Notes: a model not told the origin generated them from the letters alone. Shown: positions 45,775 to 64,000, counted from the stretch's first letter. The stretch: 64,000 bases of DNA from Pseudomonadota bacterium (GCA_039714975.1 JBDLIH010000005.1:12857-76856), one strand, 5' to 3'. Program-made: numbers and translations.

Positions 45775-45884
45775 AGTCTTTAATTTGTATTAACGACAGG
45801 CAGTCGCACGGATTAGTGGATTAAAAATCGAATCATACCTGTTTCAGGCTGTTTAGCCCAAGACTGTACACAGGTAATATTGTT

Positions 45885-45914
45885 AAAAAAAAAAGGGCGG
45901 AATAATCCGCCCTT
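45885..45914 (-). terminator. Rho-independent terminator after the small Cys-peptide gene
   Basis: The minus strand reads AAGGGCGG-attatt-CCGCCCTT followed by T10. Confidence 0.8.
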
Positions 45915-45965: not shown

Positions 45966-46178
45966 CTAGTTAGCGATGCAAACCTTGTTTTTATTACCCC
46001 CAGGGTAAGTCGTTCGCGCATTGCAAGCCGTCTTGTCGAGGATTTCATCGCAGGTTACCGTGCTTTCACAATCCGAATCGACTGCGTGGCTGGTGCTAAC
46101 CAGCATCAGACTGCCAATGGCCAGCAACAGGCCGCCAACAAGTAACAGGGTTCCTGCAATGCCGTTTCTCATGACCAT
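45966..46178 (-). CDS. Small secreted Cys-rich peptide (70-aa precursor)
   Basis: Signal/anchor GTLLLVGGLLLAIGSLMLVSTSHA. The mature ~37 aa has 4 Cys. It has its own sigma-54 promoter and intrinsic terminator. The C-terminus is homologous to the C-terminus of the cytochrome at 49265-51907. Confidence 0.7.
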   Translation of the reverse strand: MVMRNGIAGTLLLVGGLLLAIGSLMLVSTSHAVDSDCESTVTCDEILDKTACNARTTYPGGNKNKVCIAN

Positions 46179-46217
46179 CTTTTCTGAATAGTGTTTTCCA
46201 TATAATTAGTGAACAAG

Positions 46218-46232
46218 GCAAGCTTCATGCCA
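46218..46232 (-). promoter_or_regulatory. Sigma-54 (-24/-12) promoter of the small Cys-peptide gene
   Basis: The minus strand reads CTGGCATGAAGCTTGCC (TGGCAT-N5-TTGC). The -12 element lies 40 nt upstream of ATG 46178. Confidence 0.75.
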
Positions 46233-46308
46233 GGCACGGGTAAATCAGGAACTTTCTGGCAGAATAGGACGTTAGCTTACACATTCCTCCTGGTCCAGAT
46301 TAGAAGCA

Positions 46309-46356
46309 TGACAAATTTGTCAGGTATGTCACATACAGTCTGTCAGACAAATGACA
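46309..46356. promoter_or_regulatory. TGTCA/TGACA array (candidate enhancer/UAS), site A
   Basis: Five pentamers in 48 bp, including the perfect 14-bp palindrome TGACAAATTTGTCA (46309-46322) and TGTCAGACAAATGACA (46341-46356). Lies 75-125 bp upstream of the -24 box. Confidence 0.6.
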
Positions 46357-46578: not shown

Positions 46579-47373
46579 ATGTTTCTGCGACTACCGAAAT
46601 TCATCTGTGCATTGTTCCTCGCCTGCATGGCCGGCTGTGCGCCCGACTCGGGCCAGCAACCGCAACTCATGGTGTTTGCCGCGGCAAGTCTGCGCGATGT
46701 CATGAGTGAAGTGGGTACGCGTTTTGAGCAGGAACACGGCATCCACGTCAACTACAACTTCGCCGGCAGTAATGTGCTTGCCCAGCAACTCCTTGCTGCC
46801 CCCAAGGCCGACCTCTTTCTCAGTGCCAACAAAGCCTGGATGCGGCGTCTGGGACAGGCTGAGCGGATCGTGCCCGGCTCGCACCAGGCGGTTCTGGGCA
46901 ACCGGCTCGTGGTCATCGCCAATCATGCCAGTATCCTGAAGGCTAATCCCCGGGAACTGTTCTGCACGCCCGGCTTTGAATACCTTTCCATTGGCAATCC
47001 GGAGGCAGTGCCCGCTGGAATCTATGCCAGGGAGTGGCTGGAAAAACTTCCCTGCGACGAGGGCAGCGCCTGGGACGCGGTTGCCGGCCGCATTGCGCCG
47101 GCGCCTGACGTGCGCGCGGCCCTGGGTCTGGTGGAAGCCGATCGGGATATTCCGGGAATTGTCTATGCCACCGATGCGGCCATGTCGGACAAGGTGCGCG
47201 TCATTCAGGAGGTGAGCGGTAACGATGCGCCCGTCATCCTCTATTACGCGGCCCTGGTGGACAACGAATCCAGCCATGAGCAGGCCAGGCTGTTTCTTCG
47301 TTTCCTGACCGGCGAGCAGGCCGCCGAAGTGTTCCGTCGTTACGGTTTTACCGGTCCGCAGAACCATGAATGA
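46579..47373 (+). CDS. modA: Molybdate ABC transporter substrate-binding lipoprotein ModA
   Basis: Lipobox [15 protein letters not shown], and the overall ModA pattern. Followed by modB and modC. Confidence 0.85.
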
Positions 47374-48046
47374 GGCCTCGCTGACGGCGCTGCTGTTGAC
47401 GCTGCAATATGCCTCGCTGGCCACGGCCATCGTCTTTGTACCCGGCATGCTCATTGCCTATGTGCTGGCACGTTTTTCCTTTCCCGGCAAGGTCTTCGTC
47501 AGTGCCCTGACGAGCCTGCCCCTGGTCCTGCCGCCCACTGCGGTGGGTTATCTGTTGCTGCAGATGCTCGCCACTGACGGGATTCTCGGCAGGGAGATTC
47601 TGGGTGTCGACCTGGACATTCTGTTGACCGGAAAAGCGGTCGTCGTGGCATGCGCGGTGATGTCGGTGCCGCTGATTATCCGGACTGCCCGGATCGCCTT
47701 CGAGGGGGTGAATGACCGCTACGAGGCTATGGCGCGCACTCTGGGTTATGGACCTGTAGAAACCTTTCTGCGTTTCACCTTTCCACTGGCGGCACGCGGC
47801 CTGCTGGCGGCGATGATCCTGGGTTTCACCCGCGCCATGGGCGAGTTTGGTGTGACCGTCACGATTGCCGGCAACATCCCCGGCCGCACCCAGACCCTGG
47901 CCTCTGCCATCTTCAGTGCCCAGCAGGTCGGCAACGATCACGAGGCCAATTTCCTGGTTCTCGTTGCCCTGGCGACCGGCTTTTGTGCGATCCTGGCGGC
48001 CGAGTTCCTTTCGCTACGGGGCGCGCGTAGACGCAAATCCCCTTGA
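47366..48046 (+). CDS. modB: Molybdate ABC transporter permease ModB
   Basis: Five/six-TM permease with the conserved loop ...[24 protein letters not shown]. Confidence 0.85.
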
Positions 48047-49146
48047 GCAACGGCCATGAAATTCGGGCTAAGCTGAATCTGCCCCTCGATCGATTCACCC
48101 TGTCAGTGGATCTCAAGCTGCGCCGGCATGTGACGGGTATCTTTGGGGCTTCGGGTTCCGGAAAGACCAGCCTGCTGGAGACTGTTGCCGGACTCCGCCG
48201 CAGTGCGCAGGGCATGCTCCGTCTGGGTGACCAGCTGTGGCAGGACTCTTACCGGGGCGCCTTCATGCCGCCTGAACGCCGCAATATCGGTTATGTGCCC
48301 CAGGATGCCCTGCTGTTTCCACACCGGAATGTGCGTGCGAACCTGCTTATTGGCCAGCGCCGGGCGCGGTGCCAGGGTCAGGATGTCGAGGCCCTGCAGC
48401 AGGAAGTGATCGCCTTGCTGGAACTGGATGCCCTGCTGGAGCGCAACGTCGACACTCTCTCGGGAGGGGAGCGCCAGCGGGTGGCCTTGGGTCGGGCTCT
48501 GTGTTCCGGACCGCGGCTGCTGCTGATGGATGAGCCACTGGCTTCCCTCGACCTGGGTATGCGGCGCAAGTTGTTGCCCTTTCTGCGCACGATCCGCCAA
48601 TCCTTCGACATCCCCATGCTATTGGTCTCACACGACCCAATTGAGGTTCAGGCCCTGTGTGATGAGTTGGTGGTCCTGCAGGATGGTCAGGTCATTGCCC
48701 AGGGTGAACCCCGGGTTACCCTGATGCAGGCGTCCCGTGATGCGGCGGAATTTGCGCATTTGGTCGAAAATGTACTGCCTTGCCGCTTTGAGCGTCATGA
48801 GGGCGAGGCAACTCTGGTCCGTATCGGGCTTGAGGGCGATGGCCCGCTGCTGACACTGCCCCGGGTGAGCGGGGCGGGTGCAAGCGCGCAGATGATTGCC
48901 GTGCGCAGCCGGGACATTATCGTATCCAATACCCGGCCATACGGTCTCTCGGCCCGCAATGTCCTGCCCGGTGTGGTGCGGCGGGTGGCAGCGGCCGGCA
49001 AGAAATACCTGGTCTTTTGCGCAGTAGACCGGAGCGCGGTGGAACTGGCCGTGGAAGTCACGCTGGCCTCGCTGCAGGAACTGGATCTCAAGCCGGAAAC
49101 CCCGGTGTTTCTTATTATCAAGGCAACTACCCTGGAACTCTGCTGA
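48043..49146 (+). CDS. modC: Molybdate ABC transporter ATP-binding protein ModC
   Basis: Walker [37 protein letters not shown], and a C-terminal Mop/TOBE-like ~130 aa. Confidence 0.85.
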
Positions 49147-49264: not shown

Positions 49265-51907
49265 CTAGATCGGGCTACAGACCTTGTTCTTGTTGCTATA
49301 GCTGCAGGTGGCCTGCGCGTTGCAGGAGGTCTTGTCGCCGTTGTACTGCGAGCAGTCGACCTGCTCGCAGACAGGATCTCCGCCGCAGTTGTCGATGTCA
49401 TCACAGTCGACCAGTCCGTTGCAGTCGTTGTCAACACCGTCATCACAGGTCAGCTCCGTCGGCCCTTCCGGTGTACAGACGTTCGACACACACTGGCCGT
49501 TCTTTGGGCTGCCCTGCCAGTCACAGACAGGATCATTATTGCAGCTACCCTTGTCTTCGTGTATGGAGCAACCCTGGCCTGTTAGGCAGTCGGTATCCGA
49601 CGCATCGGTAAAACCATCACAGTCGTTGTCGACACCGTCAGTGCAGAAAGTTTCCTGTGTTTCCTGGCCGGGGGTCGGATTGCAGACCGGCGGGGTACCC
49701 CATTCGACCGAGTACATGACCACCGGCGGCACCATCTTGTAGTCGCCGTTGATCATCTGCACGCCGGTGATTGGCGCGCCGGTACTCTGGACAACGTCGG
49801 CATTGAGCCAGGCATCCATCATGGCGTCACCCTGATTGCCGAGGAACGCGTTCTCCCCGGTGTTGGCCATCTGCAGGAACTGTATGTATTCCCAGCTGGT
49901 GCCCTGATAGAGCAGGTCGATGGTGGCATGGACAGCACCGATTGGCGGGTTGAGCAATACATCGTCCGCGTGCTCGTAGGTATCGCCTGTCCTGGTATAA
50001 CGGGTTTCCGGCACCGGCAGTGCGTTGCGCTTCTTGGCTTCGGTGTAGCTCATCTGATACGGCGGAATGCGGTTGTCCTTGGATACGTAGTTGTTGAGCG
50101 CAAAATGGAAGGTCTCATGGTAGTCGCCCGAGCAATCAGGATACTGGACGGGATCGTCGAGCAGGAACTGACTGACAGTACAGTCTGGCAGACCCGTTAA
50201 GCGGTCATAGCTGAGCGCGAAGTCCGGGTCTTGCACGGCCTGCACGATAACAGCCCATTCCCTGGTGATGGCGTAGTGCGCTTCGTAGATCTCGGTGTTG
50301 GTGCCATCCAGCTTGAGGATGGTTTCCACGGCATCGGCCTGACCGTCACCGTCGAGGTCCATGTCGGTCTGCAGGCTGCCGTACGCGCCATCTTCTCCAA
50401 CCAGGGCGCCTTCACTGTCATACCACTTGATGTTCAGCCACATGCGGCGTCCTTCAGGGTAGCCGGTGATCAGCTTGTGGCCGGTCAGGTTGGTGACCGT
50501 GACGGTGTTGCCCGTTACCGACAGGGCACCCGCTTCACGCAGATGCTTGGTGGCGCGTTCCTGGCCGAGGTCCATTGCCAGCAGCTGGGTGCTGTTCAGA
50601 CCACCGCCTACACGCAGCGTACCGACGTCAGGCCGATCCTGGTACTGTGCCATGCTGGCGAACCAGTAGTTGCCGCCGGTGTGGTCATGGCGCGGCAGGT
50701 CGGACCGTGTCTTGACGTTCTTGTTGCAACCTTTGCCGGTAGTCGGGCGCATATGGCAGCTCTGGCAGCTGAATTTACGCGGTGTACCGTCAGCATAGTC
50801 ACCTTCGATTATGCTTGAGTCATTTGGGTCACCCGGATCTGCCGCGATGGCGGCCTGGTAGGTGACTTCAAGAGAACCGCCCGCCACCTGCAGGTCGAGC
50901 GGGAGATCTTCATTGAATCGGCCAACGCGCATGTTTGAAAGCGGGCTGGACTTGTATTCGCTGAAGGTACGTTCGACGATGCCGTAGGCATACGGCGGGT
51001 TGTTGAACGCGGCCTTGTTGACGATGGCGCCGCCCAGGCAGCCGCCGCCGACTGCGGACAGGTCGCCGCCCTCGGGAAACGGCAGGATGGTGTTGCCATT
51101 GTCATCGACACAGTCGAAATCACGACTTGAAATAACTGTTGCGTCTGTAGGCGCCAGACTCTGGGTGCCATGGTTGCCGGCGAGGTCACCCACCGCTGAG
51201 TTGGACACGTCGTGGCAGCTTCCGCAGAAATCCGGGTCGCGGTGCCATGCTGACTGTCTGAACTGGTGGCGTGCTTCGGCATCATCCTCAGCGTATGGTC
51301 CCAGTTTTACATTGACGTCAGGCCACAGCGAGAGCATGCCGCTGCCGTAGAAGCCTTCGCCAGCCGAGCCGGTCTTCGTACATTTGTCAGGGACGTTTGG
51401 ATCGGGCTCACAGTTGGCGATAAACGGCGAGTTCATCATGCCCTGCAGTATGGGGTCGGAATTGTTCGGGTTGGTCGCGGCATGGCAGGTATCGCAGTCG
51501 ATGCCGTTATCATCGCTCGCTGCCAGGCCGGAACCGTCGGTCGGTGTGGAGCGGCCATCATACCAACCCTTGGCGCTGTGGCAGCGGATGCAGAGATCGC
51601 CCGCGCCGTCGAAGTCCTGCTCGGCAATGGCCAGCGTGGCCCAGAACACCGGGTCACGTCCGGCGTTACCCATGGCGGCGCCGCGCCAGCCCGTGGCAGG
51701 TTCGGCGCCCGGGTCGTCGAGGTTGTATCCGGCGTGGCAGTTGTCGCACTTGTCCGGTGACTCGAAATTCCCGACTTCACCCGGCTGGGTGCCGGGCATC
51801 TTGATTTCGTTAGGCACAACACCAGCTGCTTGCGCAGTGATTGCGAATATTAGTGTCAGGCAGGCGAGTAGTGCACCTATAGGCAGGTCTTTGGTGAGGC
51901 TTGTCAT
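49265..51907 (-). CDS. Secreted five-heme c-type cytochrome with C-terminal Cys/Asp-rich (MopE-like) repeats
   Basis: Signal peptide ...IFAITAQAAG. Five CXXCH motifs (CDNCH, CIRCH, CDTCH, CGSCH, CQSCH). The C-terminal ~125 aa contains CTDGVDNDCDGFTD and CDDGVDNDCNGLVD repeats. Confidence 0.85.
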   Translation of the reverse strand: MTSLTKDLPIGALLACLTLIFAITAQAAGVVPNEIKMPGTQPGEVGNFESPDKCDNCHAGYNLDDPGAEPATGWRGAAMGNAGRDPVFWATLAIAEQDFDGAGDLCIRCHSAKGWYDGRSTPTDGSGLAASDDNGIDCDTCHAATNPNNSDPILQGMMNSPFIANCEPDPNVPDKCTKTGSAGEGFYGSGMLSLWPDVNVKLGPYAEDDAEARHQFRQSAWHRDPDFCGSCHDVSNSAVGDLAGNHGTQSLAPTDATVISSRDFDCVDDNGNTILPFPEGGDLSAVGGGCLGGAIVNKAAFNNPPYAYGIVERTFSEYKSSPLSNMRVGRFNEDLPLDLQVAGGSLEVTYQAAIAADPGDPNDSSIIEGDYADGTPRKFSCQSCHMRPTTGKGCNKNVKTRSDLPRHDHTGGNYWFASMAQYQDRPDVGTLRVGGGLNSTQLLAMDLGQERATKHLREAGALSVTGNTVTVTNLTGHKLITGYPEGRRMWLNIKWYDSEGALVGEDGAYGSLQTDMDLDGDGQADAVETILKLDGTNTEIYEAHYAITREWAVIVQAVQDPDFALSYDRLTGLPDCTVSQFLLDDPVQYPDCSGDYHETFHFALNNYVSKDNRIPPYQMSYTEAKKRNALPVPETRYTRTGDTYEHADDVLLNPPIGAVHATIDLLYQGTSWEYIQFLQMANTGENAFLGNQGDAMMDAWLNADVVQSTGAPITGVQMINGDYKMVPPVVMYSVEWGTPPVCNPTPGQETQETFCTDGVDNDCDGFTDASDTDCLTGQGCSIHEDKGSCNNDPVCDWQGSPKNGQCVSNVCTPEGPTELTCDDGVDNDCNGLVDCDDIDNCGGDPVCEQVDCSQYNGDKTSCNAQATCSYSNKNKVCSPI

Positions 51908-51958: not shown

Positions 51959-51973
51959 GCAAGAACGGTGCCA
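51959..51973 (-). promoter_or_regulatory. Sigma-54 (-24/-12) promoter of the five-heme cytochrome gene
   Basis: The minus strand reads CTGGCACCGTTCTTGCTT, a full match to TGGCAC-N5-TTGC. The -12 element lies 52 nt upstream of ATG 51907. Confidence 0.85.
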
Positions 51974-52062
51974 GATCTATAATAGATCTAAAATAGTAAA
52001 GAATATCTTAAGGTTATTCAGAAAAGATAAAATCCATGTTCAGCCTGACTTATGTTGATAGC

Positions 52063-52118
52063 TGTCAGAATTGGCAGAGAGGTGCCAATTCTGGTGTCAG
52101 TAGATGTCAGTAATGACA
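52063..52118. promoter_or_regulatory. TGTCA/TGACA array plus 11-bp perfect inverted repeat (candidate enhancer/UAS), site B
   Basis: TGTCA at 52063, 52095 and 52105; TGACA at 52114. CAGAATTGGCA-N6-TGCCAATTCTG spans 52066-52093. Lies 90-145 bp upstream of the -24 box. Confidence 0.6.
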
Positions 52119-52149
52119 GTACTGCGTGACTGGAGAAATACTGCAGGCG

Positions 52150-53007
52150 TCAGATTATGTCATGGCGTAACGCAAGACCAACGGCTTCTGTGCGGCTATG
52201 TACCCCCAGCTTCAGGAACATGTTCTTGAAATGGTTGCGTACGGTCTCGGCACTGATAAACAATTGTTTGGCAATTTGCGCGGTCTTCACTCCCTCTGAC
52301 GCCATGTTCAGCAATTGTTTTTCCCGGGGCGTCAGGCGACTGAAACATGTGTCGGGATGTGTATCGGTATTCTTCGTATTGGCCATCCGTTGCAGCAGTT
52401 GCCGGGTACTAATGTGCCGCAGGCTGAAAAAGACGCCAACGTTATCGGTATTCTGCTGTAATTCAGCCGGTGTGTAGTAAGCGCCCACATTGACCATAAT
52501 GGAATTACCGTTCTCGTGATCCACCATCATGTCGATATTCCCGGCCGCCGGCCTGCCGCTAGCCCTTTGGGAGAAGGGGCAATCGTGTCCACAAATGGCG
52601 TTTCCATGCAGGCCGACGCTGCACAGCACCCCGGCGCACGCGGTATTCAGGATATCTTCCCGGGTATGTCCCAGCAGATTTTCGCAACTGCTGTTCCAGA
52701 AGCGGATTCTTTTCTCACCATCAATGCCAAATACAGCATCTGTGCTCTGTTCAAAGACCTGGTACATGCCATTCATCATCTGGTTTCCCTTTAATGCATT
52801 ATCTGGAACCCATCCTTGTTGTTTATCAAACAGCCTTGTCCCGGTAACGATATATTCGGATGCACCAAACGTGCCAGAAATCTGTTTCGTATAAACAGAT
52901 GAATCTAAAGGTGTAAAATCACGGCTGCTCAGATCGTTCTGATCGAACATGACATAAATGACATATGTAAATGCCGATATGACGTTATTGGCATATTTTG
53001 GTGACAT
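52150..53007 (-). CDS. PAS-domain LuxR/FixJ-type (HTH) transcriptional regulator
   Basis: PAS core ...STDAVFGIDGEKRIRFWNSSCENLLGH... with a four-Cys cluster CAGVLCSVGLHGNAICGHDCP. The C-terminal HTH is LTPREKQLLNMASEGVKTAQIAKQLFISAETVRNHFKNMF. There is no receiver domain and the start is uncertain. Confidence 0.8.
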   Translation of the reverse strand: MSPKYANNVISAFTYVIYVMFDQNDLSSRDFTPLDSSVYTKQISGTFGASEYIVTGTRLFDKQQGWVPDNALKGNQMMNGMYQVFEQSTDAVFGIDGEKRIRFWNSSCENLLGHTREDILNTACAGVLCSVGLHGNAICGHDCPFSQRASGRPAAGNIDMMVDHENGNSIMVNVGAYYTPAELQQNTDNVGVFFSLRHISTRQLLQRMANTKNTDTHPDTCFSRLTPREKQLLNMASEGVKTAQIAKQLFISAETVRNHFKNMFLKLGVHSRTEAVGLALRHDII

Positions 53008-53237
53008 TAACTGACCAGGGAGGGAGGTTTTCCTCGTACGGTTTTGCCTGGTGCACTTTATCGAATATGACCCATGTGACGAGATTTATGACTCAAACGG
53101 GTCATTCATTCCGTATGGAGTAACCGCCAGAATCATTACCCATGACCAGTTGCCTGTGACGCCAGTGGTGTCGCAGGGTACGTGGTCCGGATAACGATAG
53201 TTCAACTAATTTTGGTCCGGTGACAGGAGGACAGGGG

Positions 53238-56030
53238 ATGGGCATTAAACGGCGTGTATTTCTGAAGATGCTGGCCGGGACGACGGTCACGGCGGCCTCC
53301 ATCAAGGCTTTTGGACTGGCTGGTGATAGCCTGAAGGTTGTTAGCGATCCCTATGCCTATCCACCGCAATACCGGGGCTGGGAGGATCTGTACCGTGACG
53401 AATGGACCTGGGACAGTGTGGCGCGCAGCACCCACGGCGTAAACTGCACCGGGTCGTGTTCGTGGAAAGTCTATGTCAAGGACGGCATGATCATGCGCGA
53501 GGAGCAGGCCGCCGACTTCCCCGTGATTGATCCGGCACTGCCCGACCTTAACCCGCGCGGTTGTAACAAGGGCGCCTGTTATACCGCCGAGTATGTCAAT
53601 GGCGACCGGCGCATCAAGTACCCGCTGCGTCGTACCGGCCCGCGTGGCTCCGGGCAATGGGAACGGATTTCCTGGGACACGGCGCTGACCGATATTGCCG
53701 ACCAGGTTATTGCAAATATCCAGGACAGTGGCCCGGATTCGCTTACCTTCTTCTCGCCCATCCCGGCCATGAGCCCGGTCTCCTTTTCGGCAGGTATCCG
53801 TCTGGCACACTTGCTTGGCGGCGTGGCCTGCAGTTTCTATGACTGGTACTGCGACCTGCCTCCCGGTTCGCCCATTACCCTGGGCGAGCAGACCGACGTG
53901 GCCGAGTCCACCGACTGGGTGAATTCCAAATACATGATCCTGTGGGGTTCGAACCCGGTGCAGACGCGCATCCCGGATGCCCACTTTGTTACCGAGGCAA
54001 AATACAACGGGTGCAAGGTACTGGCTATCTATCCTGATTTTGCCTCCAGTTCTATCCGTGCTGATCGCTGGCTGTCCGTTGAACCGGGCACCGATGCGGC
54101 CCTGGCGCTGGCCATCTGCCAGCACCTGATCGCAAGCGGCCAGTACGACGTGGGTTACCTGCAGGAGCAGACCGACATGCCGTTCCTGGTGGACACCGTC
54201 ACCGGCAAGTATCTGCGTGAGGCCGATGTGGTCACCGGTGGTGCTGAAGATCGGTTCTACGTCTGGTCCGGTGGTCAGCCTGAACTGGCACCTGATAGCG
54301 GTCTGGACCTGGGAAATCTCTCGCCAGTGCTCAACGGTGGTAGCTACGACGTCGACACTCTGAGCGGCTCGGTAACCGTAGAGACGGTATTTGACCGCCT
54401 CGCGACGCGCCTGCAAGCGAATGATCCATATGGACTGGTCTCGGCCGAGACCGGCGTAAGCGGCCAGGTTATCAGCGAGATCGCCGATGAAATCGGCGCC
54501 GCCGGTATCAGCAGTGGCGGCCAGGTGATGATTATGCACGGTGCCGGCACCAATCACTGGTACCACAACGACCTCAACAACCGTGCCATGCTGCTGATGC
54601 TGAGCCTGCTCGGTGCCATCGGCAAGAACGGCGGTGGTTTCAACCACTACGTGGGCCAGGAGAAGATCTGGCCGGGTGCTGGTCTAGGGAAGCTGTCATT
54701 CCCGCTGGGCACGGCATTTCAGCGTTTCCAGAACACCACCCTGTGGACCCATGTACATGCCGAACTTGATGATCAACCTGCCGCCGACATGAGTCAGACC
54801 ACCCGTGGTTATATGTTTGACTCGGTGGCCAATGGCTGGATGCCGCTTTACCCCGAAGGGGCGATGGGCAACGACAAGGCCAGCTTCGTAGCCAATGGGG
54901 TTCCGGTGAAGGACCCCAAGATGATGTTCATCTGGCGCGCCAACTGGTTCAACCAGGCCAAGGGCAATAACTACATAGAGGCCAGCCTGTATCCCAAGCT
55001 GAACATGATCGTTGACCTCAACTTCCAGATGGATACCACGGCTTTTTATGCCGACATCGTGCTGCCTTCAGCGAGCCACTACGAGAAGCACGACCTCAAT
55101 ACCACGGACATGCACAGTTTCTGCCATCCGTTCAATCCGGCGATCCCGCCCATGTTTGAATCCAAAACCGACTGGCAGATCTTCCAGGCGCTGGCGGCGA
55201 AGATCGAGGAGCGGGCGGGTGGTCTCACCTACGACGATTCGAAAGCGCCGGGCGGGGAACGTGACCTGTCGACCCTGGCAAGCGATTTTACCAATAATGG
55301 CGCCATTGCGGCGGATATCGATGCCGCCCAGTTGATTCTCGACAATGCCCCGGAGACCGTTGGCATGACCATGGCGGGCATTACGGCACAGCCGCAACGC
55401 TTCAACGCCACCACTAACTGGACCAGCAATATCGAAGAGGGACGGCCCTACACGGCCTTCCTGAAACACACCGAAGGCGATAAGGATCTATACCATACTC
55501 TCACCGGCCGTCAGCAATACCTGATTGAGCACGAGTGGTTCGTGGAGGCCGGTGAGGAACTGCCAACCTATAAACCGCCGGTGTTGGCAGCAGGGGAGGA
55601 GAGCTTCCCGCTGCTCTACAACACCCCGCACGGCCGCTGGGCCATCCATTCGACCTGGCGAAATGCCAAGCAGATGCTGCGCCTCAATCGCGGTGGCCCG
55701 ATCTGCTACATGCATCCCTCGGACATGGCCAGTCGCGGCCTGGTGGATGACGACTGGGTGAAGATGCACAACAACCACGGCCAGGTCATCGTCCGGGTCA
55801 AGGCAATGGAAAGCGAGAAGGCAGGCCGTGTCACCATGTTTCACAGCTGGGAGCGTTACGTCGGTGTGAAGGGGCAGATGGCCAACTTCAACAGCGTGAC
55901 GGGCATCCGTATCAAGCCCACCCAGCTTGCCGGGGGCTACGGTCAACTGAAATTCAAGCTCAACTACTGGGGGCCTACCGGCGTGCAGCGGGATACGCGG
56001 GTTGAAGTGGAGAAATACGTCGAACCCTGA
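53238..56030 (+). CDS. Type II DMSO-reductase-family molybdoenzyme, catalytic alpha subunit (Tat-exported, NarG/EbdA/SerA-like)
   Basis: AGGAGG lies 7 nt before ATG 53238. Tat signal MGIKRRVFLKML. FS0 motif HGVNCTGSCSWKVYVKDG. The NarG-like Mo-ligand region is SFYDWYCDLPPGSPITLGEQTDVAESTDW. Confidence 0.85.
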   Translation: MGIKRRVFLKMLAGTTVTAASIKAFGLAGDSLKVVSDPYAYPPQYRGWEDLYRDEWTWDSVARSTHGVNCTGSCSWKVYVKDGMIMREEQAADFPVIDPALPDLNPRGCNKGACYTAEYVNGDRRIKYPLRRTGPRGSGQWERISWDTALTDIADQVIANIQDSGPDSLTFFSPIPAMSPVSFSAGIRLAHLLGGVACSFYDWYCDLPPGSPITLGEQTDVAESTDWVNSKYMILWGSNPVQTRIPDAHFVTEAKYNGCKVLAIYPDFASSSIRADRWLSVEPGTDAALALAICQHLIASGQYDVGYLQEQTDMPFLVDTVTGKYLREADVVTGGAEDRFYVWSGGQPELAPDSGLDLGNLSPVLNGGSYDVDTLSGSVTVETVFDRLATRLQANDPYGLVSAETGVSGQVISEIADEIGAAGISSGGQVMIMHGAGTNHWYHNDLNNRAMLLMLSLLGAIGKNGGGFNHYVGQEKIWPGAGLGKLSFPLGTAFQRFQNTTLWTHVHAELDDQPAADMSQTTRGYMFDSVANGWMPLYPEGAMGNDKASFVANGVPVKDPKMMFIWRANWFNQAKGNNYIEASLYPKLNMIVDLNFQMDTTAFYADIVLPSASHYEKHDLNTTDMHSFCHPFNPAIPPMFESKTDWQIFQALAAKIEERAGGLTYDDSKAPGGERDLSTLASDFTNNGAIAADIDAAQLILDNAPETVGMTMAGITAQPQRFNATTNWTSNIEEGRPYTAFLKHTEGDKDLYHTLTGRQQYLIEHEWFVEAGEELPTYKPPVLAAGEESFPLLYNTPHGRWAIHSTWRNAKQMLRLNRGGPICYMHPSDMASRGLVDDDWVKMHNNHGQVIVRVKAMESEKAGRVTMFHSWERYVGVKGQMANFNSVTGIRIKPTQLAGGYGQLKFKLNYWGPTGVQRDTRVEVEKYVEP

Positions 56031-56132
56031 GCGGAGCACGTGAATTGAAGTGGAAAAATACAATGGTTAAGCAAATAAACAAGTTAACAGCGTTACCGGG
56101 TAACCGGGTAACCGAGACTGGAGGTACCTGCA

Positions 56133-57149
56133 ATGGCTAAAGGTGGAGGTGGTGGTGGCAATCAGATTGCGATGCTCATCAATCTTGATAAGTGTCTTGG
56201 CTGCCATACGTGTACGGTTGCTTGCAAGAACCTGTGGACCAACAAGGGTGGCCGCGAGTACATGTACTGGAACAACGTTGAATCGCGTCCCGGCGAGGGT
56301 TACCCGAGGAACTGGGAAGGTATGGGCGGTGGCTTCCAGGGCGGTCAACCTGACCCGGGTATCTTCCCGGCAAACAGCGACTACGGCCTGGGCGACCAGG
56401 GTCAGATCGTCGATTTCGATTATCCGACACGCCTGGGTCATGATCCGGACAACGTGACCCCGAATCCCGGTATCGTCGATGCCGACCCGCAACCGGAGTG
56501 GCTGTCCAACTGGGACGAGGAGCAGGGTGACGGTACGTTCCCGAACAGCTACTACTTCTATCTGCCGCGTATGTGCAATCATTGCGATCGGCCCGCGTGT
56601 CTGGAGTCCTGTCCGCGCAAGGCCATCTACAAGCGCGAGGAGGACGGCATCGTGCTGGTGGACCAGGATCGCTGCCGCGGCTACCGCCAGTGCGTGCGCA
56701 CCTGCCCCTACAAGAAAGTCTTCTTCAACAGCGAGACGCTGAAATCGGAGAAGTGCATCTTCTGCTACCCGCGTATCGAAGCTGGCGAGGCCACCGCCTG
56801 TGCGGTGCAATGCCCCGGCCGCGTCCGCCATGTGGGTTTCGTGAGCGACGCTTCCTCGGATGTCTACAGGCTGGCCAAGGACCTGAAGGTGGCCCTGCCG
56901 CTGCATCCGGAGTACGAGACCGGACCCAACGTCTACTATATACCGCCCTTCTCGGGGCCTTCACAGGTCGATTCGAACGGAAATCTGATAAACGTGGAAC
57001 GGATACCGGTGGCCTACCTGCGCTTCCTGTTTGGCGATGAAGTCGATGCGGCCATCGCCACCCTGCGAGACGCCAGGGCTAACGGCGACCCGGACGGCAT
57101 CCTTGCCATCCTGAATTCCAATAATCGTTACGACATACCGCAACCGTAG
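56133..57149 (+). CDS. Molybdoenzyme beta subunit (NarH/EbdB-like, four Fe-S clusters)
   Basis: CLGCHTCTVACK, CNHCDRPACLESCP, CRGYRQCVRTCPY and CIFCYPRIEAGEATACAVQCP. Confidence 0.9.
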   Translation: MAKGGGGGGNQIAMLINLDKCLGCHTCTVACKNLWTNKGGREYMYWNNVESRPGEGYPRNWEGMGGGFQGGQPDPGIFPANSDYGLGDQGQIVDFDYPTRLGHDPDNVTPNPGIVDADPQPEWLSNWDEEQGDGTFPNSYYFYLPRMCNHCDRPACLESCPRKAIYKREEDGIVLVDQDRCRGYRQCVRTCPYKKVFFNSETLKSEKCIFCYPRIEAGEATACAVQCPGRVRHVGFVSDASSDVYRLAKDLKVALPLHPEYETGPNVYYIPPFSGPSQVDSNGNLINVERIPVAYLRFLFGDEVDAAIATLRDARANGDPDGILAILNSNNRYDIPQP

Positions 57150-57159
57150 GGGGCTAGTC

Positions 57160-58392
57160 ATGAAAACGTCTATGATGAAACACAACTGGTTACGCCTCCT
57201 TTGCATCCTCGTGTGTCTCTCGTTCACCGCGGGCATGAGCGCCGGCGCCTTTGCGGCCCCTCCGGATCGAGACGGCGATGGTTACGATAAGCGATCCGAC
57301 TGCGACGACAATAATGCCGCCGTCAATCCGGGCGCAACAGAAGGCCCGTTTGGTGACGCGACCTGTTCCGATACCTGGGACAACGACTGCAATGGATTGA
57401 CCGATGGAGACGATCCGCAATGTCAGGGCGGTGTCACATGCACCGACAACGACCTGGATGGTTACGGCAGTCCGGGCGATCCCTCCTGTCCGAACGGCGG
57501 AGCCACGGACTGCGACGACAATAATGCTGCCGTCAACCCGGACGCGACGGAAGGCCCGTTTGGTGACCCAACCTGTACAGATACCTGGGACAACAACTGT
57601 AACGGATTGACCGACGTTGATGACCTGAGTTGCCAGCTTGTCGACGAGGTCTGCAATGATGGCTTCGACAACGACGGTGATGGCAATATTGACTGCGCCG
57701 ATTCGGACTGTGCCGGCGAATCTGCCTGCACCGCGGGCAATAAGCTGACGGTCAACCGAGTTACCGGCACCGTGCTGGGCATCGGGCCGGATGACGGTCT
57801 GTGGAACGCCACCGCAGCGACCAGCTACAACCTGGCCTGGCGCGACGATATCAATGATACCTGTCCGCCGGAGCAAAGCTGCAGTGGTAACCAGCCGAGC
57901 TTGACGGTCAAGGCCATCCACAACGGCACCGACATCGCCTTCCTGATGTCCTGGACCGATGTCGACCAGAGCAGCGAGGTCTATCAGCCGTCGGAATTCG
58001 GCGACCGCGCCGTGATCATGCTCAACGCCAACCGCATTTGCCAGATGGGCAGTCCGACCAATCCGACCAATATGTGGTTCTGGAATGCGGCGGACAAGAC
58101 CCAGGAGACCGAGGGATCATATGGCAGCGTGCAGAACCTGCTCGGGGGTGGGATCGGCACTATCACCCATACCGATGGCGACGACAACATCCAGGCAGTC
58201 AGCAGCTACGCGGGAGGCATGTGGCAGGTGGTAATGAGTCGTCCGCTGGCCGCGATTGATCCGCTTGATCAGTTCGAGTTTACTCTTGGTGTGACCACCG
58301 ATGTGTCCTATGCCGTGTATGATGGAGCGTTCAAGCAGCGCAACGGGTCCAAGTGGATCAGCGGCCGGGAAGCGATAAACATCGCACCTTGA
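57160..58392 (+). CDS. Molybdoenzyme gamma subunit (EbdC/DdhC/SerC-like heme-b domain) with N-terminal Cys/Asp-rich repeat extension
   Basis: Sec signal ...GMSAGAFAAPP. Residues ~35-200 hold three DxDxDG...CDDNNAAVNPxATEGPFGDxTCxDTWDNxCNGLTD-type repeats. The C-terminal ~210 aa is EB_dh-like (LTVKAIHNGTDIAFLMSWTD, FGDRAVIMLN, MWFWNA, GMWQVVMSRPL). Confidence 0.75.
   Translation: MKTSMMKHNWLRLLCILVCLSFTAGMSAGAFAAPPDRDGDGYDKRSDCDDNNAAVNPGATEGPFGDATCSDTWDNDCNGLTDGDDPQCQGGVTCTDNDLDGYGSPGDPSCPNGGATDCDDNNAAVNPDATEGPFGDPTCTDTWDNNCNGLTDVDDLSCQLVDEVCNDGFDNDGDGNIDCADSDCAGESACTAGNKLTVNRVTGTVLGIGPDDGLWNATAATSYNLAWRDDINDTCPPEQSCSGNQPSLTVKAIHNGTDIAFLMSWTDVDQSSEVYQPSEFGDRAVIMLNANRICQMGSPTNPTNMWFWNAADKTQETEGSYGSVQNLLGGGIGTITHTDGDDNIQAVSSYAGGMWQVVMSRPLAAIDPLDQFEFTLGVTTDVSYAVYDGAFKQRNGSKWISGREAINIAP
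57298..57414 (+). repeat. Intragenic direct repeat, copy 1 (~117 bp)
   Basis: gactgcgacgacaataatgccgccgtcaatccg...acctgggacaacgactgcaatggattgaccgat.... By eye it is highly similar to 57508-57624, offset by 210 bp (70 codons). Confidence 0.85.
57508..57624 (+). repeat. Intragenic direct repeat, copy 2 (~117 bp)
   Basis: gactgcgacgacaataatgctgccgtcaacccg...acctgggacaacaactgtaacggattgaccgac.... Confidence 0.85.
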
Positions 58393-58402
58393 TTGCCGGG
58401 CA

Positions 58403-59092
58403 ATGACTACAGAAGCAAAGGAGAACAACATGTCGGGACAAGCTGCACTGGAAATGACGAAGCTCACGGACGAGGATCTTGTCGATGTTAACCGCAGTCG
58501 GCTGTACAAGCTGCTTGCCCTGGGGTTCGGGTTTCCGTGCAAGGATTTGCATGATGCACAGGCCGAACTCCGGGAAATCGCGGCAGCGCTGTATCCCGAT
58601 CTGGAACTGAACCGGGAAGATGTGAACCTGCTGGCCCCGGAAATCGAGTCGTTGTACATCAATGTGCTCGATGGGCATAACCAGAAAAAGGCCTGCAGGC
58701 CCTACGAAACTGCCTGGCGAGAGGGCGAACGGTCCATGCAGCAGTGGGAAGTGAAGAAGTTATACCAGATATTCGGTCTGGAGCTGAACAAGGAAACCAA
58801 CGAGTTGCCGGACCATATCGTGAACGAACTGGAGTTCATGCATTTCCTCAGTCATCAGGCAGTGGAGGCCAGCAGGGGGCTGCTGGGTGATGGCGACAGC
58901 CGCAAGCAGTATGTGCATGCGCAGAAGGACTTTCTGGAGCGGCACCTCAGTCTGTGGGTGCCAAAATTCTGCAAGGCACTGCAGGAAAAGATTGACGAAC
59001 CGTTCTACATGAATCTCGCAGCCCTCACGGAACAGTTTGTCACGGATGACCTCGAGTGGGTGCAGGAGCAGTACGAGGCCGAGAACGGCTAG
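58403..59092 (+). CDS. TorD/NarJ/EbdD-family molybdoenzyme maturation chaperone
   Basis: RSRLYKLLALGFGFP and ELPDHIVNELEFMHFL. Its position is directly after the structural genes. Confidence 0.8.
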   Translation: MTTEAKENNMSGQAALEMTKLTDEDLVDVNRSRLYKLLALGFGFPCKDLHDAQAELREIAAALYPDLELNREDVNLLAPEIESLYINVLDGHNQKKACRPYETAWREGERSMQQWEVKKLYQIFGLELNKETNELPDHIVNELEFMHFLSHQAVEASRGLLGDGDSRKQYVHAQKDFLERHLSLWVPKFCKALQEKIDEPFYMNLAALTEQFVTDDLEWVQEQYEAENG

Positions 59093-59113: not shown

Positions 59114-60109
59114 ATGCCTAACCTTGTTGATTCGTTCGGGCGCTGCATCGATTACCTGCGGATTTCAGTTACCGACCGTTGTAATTACCACTGCTTCTAC
59201 TGCCGGCCGGCCGGTGCGGTGGTCGATGGCAGCCATCATGACTTTCTCAGGCATGAGGAAATAGCTCGCCTGGTCCGCCTGTTTTCCGAACTGGGTGTGA
59301 GCAAGGTGCGGCTCACCGGTGGTGAACCGCTGCTGCGGCGCAATCTTGCAGGGTTGGCGACCATGATCACCGGCCTGCCGGGGATTGCCGATCTTTCCCT
59401 GTCCACCAACGGCCATTTGCTCGAACGTTTCGCGGCACCGCTGCAAGCGGCGGGGATAGGGCGCGTCAATATCTCCCTGGATTCCCTGGATCAGGATAAT
59501 TTCTCGGCCATTACCTGTGGTGGCGATCTCGACTGCGTCATCAAGGGAATCGAGGCCGCTCAGGCAGCCGGTATGACACCGATAAAGATCAACATGGTGG
59601 TCATGAAGGGGGTCAATGAACACGAGATCGATAGCATGCTGGACTTCGCGCTGGAGCGGGGTCTGGAGCTGCGTTTTATTGAAACCATGCCGGTGGGAAC
59701 GGCCGGTGCCGGTAACATGGTCCATTATTATCCGGCTGCCCGGATTCTCGAGCATATTCGCGCGCATTACGGTTCCCGGCTTGTTCCCGTGCAGGGACAA
59801 CGCGGGCCGGGACCCGCACGTTACTATCAGGCCGGCGACAGTGATGTAAAGGTCGGGGTGATATCCGCGGTATCCAGGCATTTCTGCGAGAGCTGTAATC
59901 GCGTGCGCCTGACAGCGCGCGGCGATCTGGTGCTTTGTCTGGGTCACGAGGACCGGGTTTCATTGCGCAGTGCGCTGCGTGACGGGCGTTCCGATGCCGG
60001 GATCAAGCAGGACATCCTGGCAGCCATCGCGAGAAAACCGGAACACCATGATTTCAGCAGTAAGGCTGACCAGCCGGTTACCGCTCAAATGGTCACCCTG
60101 GGTGGATGA
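59114..60109 (+). CDS. moaA: GTP 3',8-cyclase MoaA (molybdenum cofactor biosynthesis)
   Basis: Radical-SAM CNYHCFYC and LTGGEPLLR. The C-terminal cluster is CESCNRVRLTARGDLVLCL. Confidence 0.9.
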   Translation: MPNLVDSFGRCIDYLRISVTDRCNYHCFYCRPAGAVVDGSHHDFLRHEEIARLVRLFSELGVSKVRLTGGEPLLRRNLAGLATMITGLPGIADLSLSTNGHLLERFAAPLQAAGIGRVNISLDSLDQDNFSAITCGGDLDCVIKGIEAAQAAGMTPIKINMVVMKGVNEHEIDSMLDFALERGLELRFIETMPVGTAGAGNMVHYYPAARILEHIRAHYGSRLVPVQGQRGPGPARYYQAGDSDVKVGVISAVSRHFCESCNRVRLTARGDLVLCLGHEDRVSLRSALRDGRSDAGIKQDILAAIARKPEHHDFSSKADQPVTAQMVTLGG

Positions 60110-60174: not shown

Positions 60175-60801
60175 ATGTCAGAGCACGGTGAGACAGGCAG
60201 GGTTCAGCCACTGACAGCAGCGCTGTTCAGTCTCATATTCGTGTGCGCATGCGTTCCTGTTTCCGCTGATGAATCGGTCGAGGCCGCCCGGGCGGCGGCT
60301 CACGCCGCCGAGGCAGCCAGAGAGGGAACCGGGATTCCTGCGCTTCCGGAGAAACAGATGGCTGCCTACCTGGATGGCCGGGCGATGTGGATGGCCAGTG
60401 TGGCAGAGCTGAATCATTATCCCGACCCGCGGCAGGTACTGGAACTCGCAGCGAAGCTTGAACTCTCCGCGGAACAGCAACAGGCCACCATGAAGCTTTA
60501 TGATGAAACACGCCCGGAGGCAATCCGTCTTGGCAAACAACTGGTAGAACAGGAGCAGAGACTTAACCGGGTCTTTGCATGGGGACAGGCATCAGGAAAA
60601 AATATCAGGCAAGTCGTGACTGACATCGGCGCACTTAAGGCAAAACTCAGATTAACGCATCTGCTGGCCCACATTAGTACAAGAGAACTGCTCACGGAAG
60701 ATCAGGTCAAGCGCTATGATGAACTTCAGGGCTATGGCGAAACAACCGGGGAGAGCGGTAACAGGATGGGCTGCAATGCCATGCATCATCACGGGCGCTG
60801 A
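60175..60801 (+). CDS. Periplasmic CpxP/Spy/ZraP-like protein with His-rich C-terminus
   Basis: Signal peptide ...LFSLIFVCACVPVSA. LTxxQ-type helices (LSAEQQQATMKLYDE, LTEDQVKRYDEL). The C-terminus is ...CNAMHHHGR. The start could instead be ATG 60106 (ATGA-coupled to moaA). Confidence 0.6.
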   Translation: MSEHGETGRVQPLTAALFSLIFVCACVPVSADESVEAARAAAHAAEAAREGTGIPALPEKQMAAYLDGRAMWMASVAELNHYPDPRQVLELAAKLELSAEQQQATMKLYDETRPEAIRLGKQLVEQEQRLNRVFAWGQASGKNIRQVVTDIGALKAKLRLTHLLAHISTRELLTEDQVKRYDELQGYGETTGESGNRMGCNAMHHHGR

Positions 60802-61622
60802 GAGGGTTTATTGTCCGAAGGTTGCTGCTCCAGCGCCTGTTTGATAGCACTATTGAACACGTTTACTGGTTGTGCACCAATAACGACCTTCCCGGTAATC
60901 TTCTTGCTGTCCGATTTCCCGATAATAAAGCTGGGTGTACCTGTCAATTTCACACCCCTGGCGTCTTGTGCATCCTTGTCGATTGCGTCGAGATGCCGGT
61001 CGCTGTTCAGGCAAGCATTGAAGGCTTCAACGTCCAGTGACAGCTCTTGGGCATAACCGGGCAGGTGTTGCACACCAATTGCTTTCGGGTTCTCGAACAG
61101 CGTTTCACGCATTTCCCAGAACTTGCCCTGGTCGCCCGCGCACAGCGCGCCCTGGGCTGCCTTGCGCGCGTCCTTGTGGAATGCCAGCGGCAGATTGAGG
61201 GCGACCCAGCGCACCTTGCCGGTATCGATGTAGTTTTTCTTTAAATGGGGGAACGTGGTCTTGCTGAAGCGCAGGCAAAACGGGCACTGGTAATCGGCGA
61301 ATTCCACCACGGTGACAGGGGCATCCGCGGAACCCATGGTTGGCCGACCCTCGATGTTCATCGTGGCGACCGTCGGTTTGGAAGGCCGCTTGGCGGTGCG
61401 TCCACCCTGTTTCTCAATCTTCTCCAGCACCTGTCTGATCGCCTTGAGTTCAAGCAGGATGGCATCCATCTTCACGTCGGGGTTAGTAGCCGAATCCACG
61501 GCTTCCTCCGTCATGGCTGCCGGTGACGTCAGCAGGGCAACAGCGGTCAGTGCCAGCGGAATACAGGTTTTAAACAACCGGGAAAGTCGATTGTTAGCGT
61601 TCGTGAAGTTTTGAATAGCCAT
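60789..61622 (-). CDS. DsbA-family thiol:disulfide oxidoreductase
   Basis: Signal peptide and thioredoxin-fold FADYQCPFCLRF. The 3' end overlaps the convergent gene by 13 nt. Confidence 0.8.
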   Translation of the reverse strand: MAIQNFTNANNRLSRLFKTCIPLALTAVALLTSPAAMTEEAVDSATNPDVKMDAILLELKAIRQVLEKIEKQGGRTAKRPSKPTVATMNIEGRPTMGSADAPVTVVEFADYQCPFCLRFSKTTFPHLKKNYIDTGKVRWVALNLPLAFHKDARKAAQGALCAGDQGKFWEMRETLFENPKAIGVQHLPGYAQELSLDVEAFNACLNSDRHLDAIDKDAQDARGVKLTGTPSFIIGKSDSKKITGKVVIGAQPVNVFNSAIKQALEQQPSDNKPSQRP

Positions 61623-61642
61623 GCTTAGTATCGTTATCTGTT

Positions 61643-61720
61643 ATGTCAATCATGTCAATCATGCCAATTATGTCATAAGTATAACCCGACATTATGTTAT
61701 ACTCACTGACAGTATTGACA
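61643..61720. promoter_or_regulatory. 9-bp-periodic ATGTCAATC iterons and TGACA pair upstream of the sigma-54 activator gene, site D
   Basis: ATGTCAATC ATGTCAATC ATGCCAATT ATGTCATAA (61643-61678), then TGACA at 61707 and 61716, again 9 bp apart. Confidence 0.6.
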
Positions 61721-61756
61721 GCAGACATGCAACACTACTGATTCCGTGGGGGCATC

Positions 61757-63163: not shown

Positions 63164-63301
63164 TCGAATCACTTTCAGCAGCCTGCCGGTAGAGAGGTCC
63201 TGTCGCCGCAGAATTTGTCAGCGCCGTTACCGGCGCGAGTTGTCACTGTAATCATCCACTGAAACCCGTTTGCATAAGTGTACAAACTGTCTTCGTTCGA
63301 A

Positions 63302-63365
63302 TGACAGCATTAACGGCGACCTCATGACAAACAAGACATGACAGCCCTGACGCGACTGTCATGAC
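63302..63365. promoter_or_regulatory. TGTCA/TGACA array (candidate enhancer/UAS), site C
   Basis: TGACA at 63302, 63325 and 63339. TGTCATGAC spans 63357-63365. Extra copies are at 63216 and 63241. Lies 75-140 bp upstream of the candidate -24 box. Confidence 0.55.
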
Positions 63366-63438
63366 GGTGTCGCATGTTATTGAATTAGTCTTGTTCCCGA
63401 TTCTATTTAAAACAATAGCTTGTGTTGCCAATAGAAAC

Positions 63439-63454
63439 TGGCATGGATTGTGCC
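63439..63454 (+). promoter_or_regulatory. Candidate sigma-54 (-24/-12) promoter of the downstream secreted-protein gene
   Basis: CTGGCATGGATTGTGCC. GG-N10-GC spacing is correct. The -12 reads GTGC rather than TTGC. Lies 110 nt upstream of ATG 63564. Confidence 0.5.
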
Positions 63455-63563: not shown

Positions 63564-64000
63564 ATGTTTAGAACTTCATTTTCACGAATCGCACACAAGG
63601 CACTGGCACTGGTTGCCTGTACCGGCGCCATCCTGGCGTTGGCGGCGGGGCCGGTATCGGCGGCGCACAACACGACGCTGACGATTAGCAAGGCGTCCTG
63701 GAATGATAAAAAGAGCGAACTGACCATTGAGGGTCGGGCTGAAGCCGGTTTTGAAGTCTTCGCCTCCAATGCGGCGGACGTTAGCCAGTCTCTGGGCTCC
63801 GATATTCCGGGCAATAACCAGCGATACAAGATTGTGGTTGCCGGGCCGATCAGCCCCTTCCCTTGTGCCGTGCACGTCGAACAGTGGGACGGTGTCGAAC
63901 TCGGCATCGTCGAGGCACCGGTTGCCAATGCACCGCCGGAGTGTCAGGGCGGCCAGAATCTGCCACCGATCTGTACTATCAACACCCCGACAGGCGATAC
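63564..64000 (+). CDS. 5' part of a secreted protein of unknown function (runs off the window; not in the ORF track)
   Basis: GGGAGA lies 7 nt before the ATG. My own translation is MFRTSFSRIAHKALALVACTGAILALAAGPVSAAHNTTLTISKASWNDKKSELTIEGRAEAG...APPECQGGQNLPPICTINTPTGD, open to the window end. The signal peptide has an A-x-A site. Confidence 0.6.
   Translation, partial: MFRTSFSRIAHKALALVACTGAILALAAGPVSAAHNTTLTISKASWNDKKSELTIEGRAEAGFEVFASNAADVSQSLGSDIPGNNQRYKIVVAGPISPFPCAVHVEQWDGVELGIVEAPVANAPPECQGGQNLPPICTINTPTGD

Follow-up and report, generated by a model that had tools for sequence, protein, structure and literature searches.

The stretch of DNA analysed here, hereafter called the window, comprises 64,000 nucleotides of a Pseudomonadota bacterium (GCA_039714975.1, JBDLIH010000005.1:12857-76856). 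It carries, on the minus strand, a small-protein gene (45966-46172, stop codon included) and a gene encoding a secreted five-heme cytochrome of 880 amino acids (aa) with five CxxCH motifs and a Cys-rich C-terminal extension (49265-51907). The preliminary description of this locus had presented the small protein as a stand-alone copy of the C-terminal Cys module of the cytochrome, which could compete with, cap or nucleate whatever the cytochrome tail binds.

The open reading frame (ORF) proposed for the small protein (45966-46178, minus strand) is present, and the encoded tail ends with CESTVTCDEILDKTACNARTTYPGGNKNKVCIAN, but translation probably does not start at 46178 to give a 70-aa peptide. 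The second ATG (46172), which gives 68 aa, is favoured because one relative has ACG in place of the first ATG and because the GGAG Shine-Dalgarno sequence of the relatives fits the second one; the database copy of the protein (P0001), as delimited by a gene caller, is also 68 aa long. The N-terminal 30 residues (MRNGIAGTLLLVGGLLLAIGSLMLVSTSHA, 46083-46172), delineated by 12 homologues, by their ratio of non-synonymous to synonymous substitution rates (dN/dS) and by a predicted helix, consist of MRNG, a 21-residue hydrophobic core and the sequence S-T-S-H-A, which provides an S-x-A site. This segment could be either a Sec signal peptide or a signal anchor. AlphaFold places a helix at residues 3-26, which is the best-predicted part of a weak model (means of 69, 85 and 58 for the three 10-residue blocks of the N-terminal segment). 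The remaining 38 residues (45969-46082) form a tail which, by alignment, profile search and profile-profile comparison, corresponds to the last 38 or so residues of proteins ending with the type B module described below, and within which a degenerate PSI-like module lacking the third Cys and the Trp can be recognised (45969-46052). Pfam and NCBIfam scans of the peptide leave the module unnamed and give only weak 'anchor' matches (E 0.6-0.8), located on the N-terminal helix. A predicted intrinsic terminator, whose stem is kept in relatives (45885-45914, minus strand), closes what would be a monocistronic transcript, and is followed by the conserved sigma-70-like promoter TTGGGC-N18-TATGAT of the downstream ccmABC operon (45832-45861, minus strand). 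In the window, the gene is flanked by ccmA and modA. As an Rfam scan of the whole window matched no RNA family, the conservation of the leader is not explained by a known small RNA.

The cytochrome ends with CEQVDCSQYNGDKTSCNAQATCSYSNKNKVCSPI. Its extension contains not one but two PSI-like modules, both on the minus strand: the terminal one, of type B (CSQYNGDKTSCNAQATCSYSNKNKVCSPI, 49268-49354), and an internal one, of type A (CSIHEDKGSCNNDPVCDWQGSPKNGQC, 49490-49570), a second copy that the preliminary description had missed. Their scores are 40.7 and 44.0 bits, respectively, with a hidden Markov model (HMM) built from 16 modules of cytochromes from other genomes only (hereafter the independent HMM), and 35.6 and 36.3 bits in a six-frame ORF search. 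Module B displays the four-Cys-plus-aromatic C-terminal pattern, with a Tyr standing for the Trp. Each module is preceded by an acidic repeat: a double-disulfide, MopE- or teneurin C-rich-like repeat ahead of module B (49367-49447), detected by NF033662, PF11617 and Foldseek, and a second one ahead of module A (49586-49645). Residues 749-780 of the cytochrome score 32.7 bits with NCBIfam NF033662 (E 4.6e-8; cut-off 41), and the protein scores 19.4 bits with Pfam PF11617 (cut-off 27). The repeat described by these two families is the neighbour of the module and not the module itself, which Pfam and NCBIfam scans of the cytochrome leave unnamed, recognising the acidic repeat only; neither acidic-repeat HMM matches the peptide. 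The mature cytochrome has 25 non-heme Cys, of which 7 are located in the core.

The conserved core of this cytochrome (about 740 aa) defines a family found at 214 genome loci, from Shewanella to Gemmatimonadota. The C-terminal ends of its members, as read from the sequences of loci L001-L080, are interchangeable and include immunoglobulin (Ig)-like ('...APNRKG...'), FN3-like, dockerin-like and PEP-CTERM-like ends; the combination of acidic repeat and Cys module is found as the end in about a dozen lineages. In cytochrome orthologues, module B has retained all its Cys and its Trp despite saturated synonymous divergence. Since the family swaps FN3-like, Ig-like, dockerin-like and PEP-CTERM ends at this position, the PSI-like tail of the cytochrome may plausibly serve in docking or anchoring or have a structural function. 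Searches of the PDB by sequence, with the cytochrome and with the module profile, gave no informative match and no solved structure related by sequence. A homologue of the cytochrome is also encoded by Methanosarcina sp. KYL-1 (L059), which suggests horizontal transfer.

The similarity between the two tails is genuine. The tails quoted in the preliminary description are exact, and an ungapped alignment reproduces the 15/34 identities (BLOSUM62 score 65). This score was reached by a single one of 20,000 shuffles in which Cys positions were kept fixed, while the Smith-Waterman score of the mature peptide against the whole cytochrome (88) was reached by none of 2000 full shuffles (mean 33.5, standard deviation 5.2, maximum 65). 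The independent HMM gives the peptide 18.6 bits, compared to 14.6 for the best of about 4,800 scored composition-matched shuffles (5,000 made). When about 25,000 six-frame ORFs of the window and of 80 related loci were searched, nothing other than cytochromes rose above noise except the peptide (18.0 bits, the next one being at 12.0), and hhalign, comparing the peptide family to the independent modules, returns a probability of 95.9% (E 5e-9). At the DNA level, 47/73 bases (64%) match, up to the stop codon exactly, and both proteins finish three residues after their last Cys, a trait shared by most members of the module family. A chance resemblance between short sequences in which Cys, Asn and Lys are over-represented is therefore most improbable, being contradicted by the shuffles, the independent HMM, hhalign and the ORF search alike. 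On this evidence, homology links the last 34-38 residues of the peptide to the Cys module that closes the cytochrome. BLASTN comparison of the flanks of the two genes detected no homology outside the coding module, and, as neither promoter nor terminator is duplicated between them, the resemblance does not stem from a recent duplication of gene ends.

The tail belongs to a portable module which many secreted, unrelated enzymes also have at their C-terminus. Searched exhaustively by HMM, 1.84 billion representative proteins yielded 83 that carry it (E<=1e-3), nearly always at the extreme C-terminus of secreted enzymes; this search superseded a word-indexed one with the module profile, whose recall was too low (5 matches, all short C-terminal fragments). 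According to Pfam, the hosts include PD40 propellers, LVIVD proteins, M14 carboxypeptidases, S8 subtilases and a beta-helix protein, to which reading of the sequences adds multicopper-oxidase-like ends (HCHILEHEDQGAMGW) and 5-, 8- and 12-heme cytochromes. In most members, the acidic repeat lies directly upstream of the module. Four Cys are invariant and a Trp two residues past the third Cys is nearly so, the family pattern being defined as C-x8-9-C-x4-5-C-x-W-x6-9-C-x0-4-end. The cluster names of these proteins are only 'hypothetical protein' or subtilisin, and no literature on the module, the small protein or the cytochrome family was found.

We read the module as a minimal four-Cys, PSI-like domain, whose fold class is known but whose occurrence at the C-terminus of bacterial proteins is undescribed. 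This contradicts the initial view that no described family has this signature, as 32/60 family tails match the Pfam PSI family (PF01437, the plexin repeat) at E<=10, with a best E of 4.2e-6 and always over positions 1-30 of the 52-position profile. Single modules of relatives score 15-22 bits, and only the double module of L014 (30.6 bits) exceeds the gathering score of 23.1; modules A and B of the window and the peptide do not match PF01437 at E<=10. The last 63 residues of the cytochrome, modelled by AlphaFold2 from a 60-sequence alignment, are predicted with a mean predicted local distance difference test (pLDDT) score of 89.5, the module being formed of two short helices and a beta-hairpin. 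This model superposes over 29-32 residues on the PSI domains of semaphorin 2a/2b and plexin A2 / Sema6A, with a root-mean-square deviation of 1.4-1.7 A, the Foldseek E-values of 3-8 being not significant. Like the PSI domain, the module would be a small extracellular alpha/beta domain stabilised by disulfides, with the arrangement C-S-x-[YFH]...C...[DN]-P-x-C-x-W...C. In contrast to it, the module has four Cys instead of eight, without the CxxC and W-C elements and with a non-Cys residue after the Trp, and it stands at the very end of enzymes secreted by bacteria, where PSI domains lie between Sema and IPT domains. In Foldseek, the acidic repeat is best matched by the teneurin C-rich domain, and both Foldseek and phmmer retrieve this domain of teneurin-4; the MopE motif has been described as related to this region of teneurins (PMC3278476). 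Six members of the family (P0019, P0057, P0075, P0085, P0088 and P0093) are Lys-rich proteins with tandem four-Cys/Trp modules separated by Pro/Thr/Ala linkers, which may be surface proteins of eukaryotes or protists. Weak matches to the Paramecium surface antigen domain of Pfam were obtained with 15/60 family tails.

Compared to this family, the tail of the small protein is degenerate. The third Cys of the module is replaced by Tyr and the Trp by Gly, while the three residues past the last Cys are kept. The peptide thus retains 3/4 module Cys and no Trp, does not match the four-Cys family pattern, and reaches only 18.6 bits with the independent HMM, as compared to 44.0 and 40.7 for modules A and B. 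Of the acidic repeat, it retains only the last Cys, in 'DC-E' (module proteins have 'P-x-C-[EQ]'). The small protein has 12 homologues in databases, all metagenomic, whose first 30 residues are near-identical (MRHGIEGTLLLVGCLLLAIGSLMLVSTSHA) and which diverge widely thereafter. Contigs were recovered for nine relatives of the gene; the DNA pattern CATWGGCAGNNTGATGCTGRTYAGCAC matched only 3 JGI contigs. Nei-Gojobori dN/dS values, obtained from about 30 codons in three or four sequences, are 0.17-0.32 for the leader and 0.49-1.14 for the tail.

In relatives, the tail carries several independent lesions. The whole module is cleanly deleted in L082, L088, L089 and P0009-P0011. Its core is gone in L085, L087 and P0007, with a palindromic insert of about 100 nt and read-through in L085 and L087, not in P0007. 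A TGC to TAG change precedes the last Cys in L083, L090 and P0003, while P0002 lacks the first Cys and P0004 has two Cys left. The leader is nevertheless retained in all tail-damaged relatives, and those whose contigs reach that far keep the sigma-54 promoter, the TGACA arrays (see below) and the terminator. All contigs that extend far enough downstream (L081, L082, L083, L089 and L090) have ccmA immediately after the gene, on the same strand. In L090, the whole ccm operon follows, its products being 66-94% identical to those of the window (82-94% for CcmA, B, C, F and G). The tail-less gene of L088 adjoins that of a 1209-aa protein, a multicopper oxidase by sequence reading, with acidic repeats and an intact type A module; an absence of module proteins does not, therefore, explain the loss of the peptide tail. 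As judged from these comparisons, the module-derived tail is dispensable in evolution, the conserved unit being the promoter, the hydrophobic leader and the terminator.

The insert which replaces the module in L085 (~780-900) and L087 (~290-400) has long inverted repeats (AGCCCGGATG...CATCCGGGCT) and extends the frame; it looks like an element of the repetitive extragenic palindrome or miniature inverted-repeat transposable element (REP/MITE) type. A secreted protein of about 1200 aa, again a multicopper oxidase by its sequence, is encoded divergently from the peptide gene in L081 (3-2816), L082 (3-86) and L088 (853-4479); besides several acidic repeats, it has a single PSI-like module of type A and an additional Cys-rich end. 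Its gene occupies the position of modABC in the window, and the intergenic TGACA arrays of these relatives may serve both divergent genes.

The regulatory part of the preliminary description, namely that both genes have sigma-54 promoters and the same upstream motif arrays, is borne out at the sequence level. The peptide gene is preceded by a sigma-54-type promoter (TGGCAT-N5-TTGC; TGGCATGAAGCTTGC, 46218-46232, minus strand), whose two boxes are kept in every relative covering the site. The sequence of the window is found unchanged in L081 and L082, and the spacer has one change in L085/L087 (G to A) and one in L088/L089 (C to A). An array of TGACA/TGTCA half-sites with the palindrome TGACAAATTTGTCA (46307-46356, minus strand), a presumed enhancer for a sigma-54 activator, lies upstream; the TGACA arrays of the peptide gene are located 75-140 nt upstream of the promoter and have equivalents (CTGACA/TGTCAG) in relatives. 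The cytochrome gene has a perfect TGGCAC-N5-TTGC promoter (TGGCACCGTTCTTGC, 51959-51973, minus strand) with a similar array upstream (52062-52164, minus strand). When clusters are defined as at least five TGACA/TGTCA per 120 nt (0.36 expected), they occur at four places in the 64 kb: upstream of the peptide, cytochrome and activator genes, and downstream of the latter. This activator gene (61757-63163, plus strand) encodes a PAS-AAA+ enhancer-binding protein of the sigma-54 activator type (Sigma54_activat 4.3e-62, PAS, HTH_8), and the arrays flanking it lie at 61601-61760 and 63241-63370 (e.g., ATGTCAATCATGTCAATCATGCCAATTATGTCA). Downstream of it (63241-63450) is found a TGGCATGGATTGTGC site (TGGCAT-N5-GTGC), then the gene of a signal-peptide protein which runs off the window (63565-64000). 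The PAS-AAA+ protein is a candidate regulator of the peptide and cytochrome genes, which appear to be co-regulated, and the activator, peptide, cytochrome and downstream secreted-protein genes look like one sigma-54 regulon.

Two further observations concern these regulatory regions. A 14-nt sequence, TATTCAGAAAAGAT, is found as an exact inverted match in the 5' untranslated region of the peptide gene (46183-46196, minus strand) and, in the opposite orientation, at about 52021-52034, in the spacer that separates the sigma-54 promoter of the cytochrome gene from its enhancer arrays; this match is probably due to chance (BLAST E 0.11), and is possibly an IHF-type site. A regulator with PAS and LuxR/GerE-type domains is encoded directly upstream of the cytochrome enhancer arrays (52150-53007, minus strand).

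Taken together, we consider it somewhat better than an even chance that the gene, under sigma-54 control, encodes a small protein, exported or located in the inner membrane, with a functional helix and a vestigial tail. The 68-aa product of this sigma-54-dependent monocistronic gene would have its functional part in the N-terminal 30 residues, the hydrophobic helix either anchoring the protein in the inner membrane (N-in, C-out) or serving as a Sec signal peptide. The tail, which would be periplasmic, would stem from the 3' end of another gene through partial duplication or fusion, the secreted protein encoded by that gene ending with a minimal four-Cys PSI-like module of the type that also closes the cytochrome. 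As the copy is degenerate, having lost the third Cys and the Trp, and its constraint is relaxed, the tail is most likely a vestige and not an element dedicated to competing with the cytochrome tail or to capping it. The helix might contact a putative membrane partner, the gene being directly upstream of ccmABC and, presumably, under the activator of the cytochrome. Among the small membrane proteins of bacteria, CydX, AcrZ and KdpF have a single, conserved transmembrane helix. The small protein described here resembles them by its size (less than 70 aa), its conserved helix and variable soluble tail, and its position next to a membrane machinery operon, ccmABC; it differs from them in having no sequence relationship to them and in being encoded by a monocistronic gene with its own sigma-54 promoter and terminator.

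Several points weigh against such a vestigial tail. In the copy of the window, the frame is intact and four Cys are retained together with the DKxxCNA and NKNKVCIAN motifs, so that this copy may work in this organism. Values of dN/dS obtained from so few codons do not separate relaxed from diversifying selection. The pLDDT of the tail is below 50 in a model built from a shallow alignment of 5 sequences, so that its apparent disorder carries little weight. Finally, no larger protein with this leader was found in the databases searched, and the fusion origin is a conjecture.

It is unlikely that the tail works here as a free or tethered module which competes with, caps, tethers or nucleates the docking of the cytochrome. 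Such a role would be in agreement with the true homology between the tails, with the apparent co-regulation of the two genes by sigma-54 promoters and shared TGACA arrays, with the even number of Cys (four) in the window copy and in P0002, and with the existence elsewhere of at least one intact 'signal peptide plus module' protein (P0068/P0107, 91-92 aa). The idea of a stand-alone copy stands as far as homology is concerned, but the copy is not intact: without its third Cys and its Trp it scores 18.6 bits versus 36-58, and with the independent HMM it has under half the score of a true module. The Cys relevant for pairing vary among homologues, and dN/dS is 0.5-1.1 in the tail as opposed to about 0.2 in the leader. 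Most relatives keep the gene with a tail that is deleted, deprived of its core or truncated by a stop, even next to the gene of a module-bearing oxidase in L088, and a free copy of the module within 10 kb of the cytochrome was found at 0/80 loci from other genomes. The proposal that the free peptide competes, caps or nucleates is consequently unsupported.

We find it just as unlikely that the gene encodes a diversifying secreted peptide, a signal or an antagonist, with a conserved export signal and a fast-changing, Cys-containing mature part, by analogy with the toxin families in which a conserved signal precedes a hypervariable toxin. The leader is indeed far better conserved than the mature part, where dN/dS rises up to 1.14, where length, counted from the S-x-A site, ranges from 13 to 41 residues, and where Cys counts vary; the gene is furthermore a regulated monocistronic unit with its own terminator. 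However, most of the changes (deletions, a nonsense mutation and read-through following an insertion) are of the sort that typifies decay, not adaptive substitution. No exporter, receptor or immunity gene is adjacent, the neighbours being ccmA and mod or oxidase genes, and a 21-residue hydrophobic core is long for a cleaved signal peptide, as judged from the sequence alone.

Less probable still, the whole ORF could be a non-functional remnant, made of a signal peptide and the last module after an internal deletion, and could look conserved merely through kinship. The mature part corresponds exactly, from just past the S-x-A site, to the last 38 or so residues of module-bearing proteins, and the relatives are close, as their Ccm proteins indicate (66-94% identical). 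Nevertheless, the leader has a dN/dS of 0.17-0.32 with 4-9 synonymous changes per pair, which points to purifying selection at the protein level; the frame, Shine-Dalgarno sequence, promoter, enhancer arrays and terminator are kept in every lineage covering them, even tail-less ones, and the databases searched contain no large protein with this leader.

The more ambitious proposal, which we regard as a long shot and less probable again than a remnant, is that redox enzymes and proteases located outside the cytoplasm in uncultured Gammaproteobacteria, Nitrospirota and others are docked or sorted by means of the module, as a C-terminal tag hitherto unrecognised, and that the small protein is a membrane-anchored partner or decoy whose module-derived tail holds the cytochrome at the inner-membrane surface or releases it. 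The module shares with C-terminal sorting tags (PEP-CTERM, LPXTG, the T9SS C-terminal domain, dockerin) its promiscuity at the extreme C-terminus of unrelated secreted enzymes. It differs from them in being a folded disulfide domain without hydrophobic helix or basic tail, and no cognate sortase, exosortase or secretion genes were identified for it, a sorting role being putative.

Three other candidates for the small protein were rejected. A precursor of a ribosomally synthesised and post-translationally modified peptide does not fit the neighbouring genes, which are ccmA and modA in the window and, in relatives, ccmA together with a divergent upstream gene for a large secreted protein (an oxidase by sequence reading, or a c-type cytochrome), without modifying enzyme or transporter. 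A lipoprotein does not fit either, as a lipobox-like motif (LVGC) is present in some homologues only, and a sortase or exosortase signal (LPXTG, PEP-CTERM) is incompatible with the polar C-termini ...NKNKVCSPI and ...NKNKVCIAN.

The modABC genes (46579-49146) lie between the peptide and cytochrome genes. On the other side of the cytochrome, an operon for a molybdoenzyme of the type II dimethyl sulfoxide (DMSO) reductase family (53220-59092, plus strand) encodes a molybdopterin subunit (936 aa), a 4Fe-4S subunit (338 aa), an EB_dh haem-b subunit (410 aa) which has MopE-like motifs of its own, and a NarJ-like chaperone, and is followed by a gene for MoaA (59114-60109). A DsbA-like thioredoxin-fold protein of 277 aa is encoded just upstream of the activator gene (60789-61622, minus strand), and plausibly helps to form the disulfides of the Cys-rich secreted proteins of the region.

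Nothing here overturns current understanding. PSI-like and teneurin-C-rich-like cysteine domains are usually regarded as parts of animal cell surfaces; if the picture drawn here is true, bacteria would commonly append them in tandem, as a tail, to secreted cytochromes, multicopper oxidases and proteases. Domain libraries miss the module copies of the window itself and detect most copies of relatives only below threshold, so that a dedicated model of the module could improve the annotation of environmental multiheme cytochromes. The candidate sigma-54 regulon, whose neighbours are the mod, moaA and ccm genes and those of a type II DMSO-reductase-like molybdoenzyme, would provide a testable handle on the regulation of an uncharacterised five-heme cytochrome family. 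Finally, the small gene could illustrate how a small protein is born from a signal or anchor helix and the 3' end of a larger gene, and then loses the part that it had borrowed.

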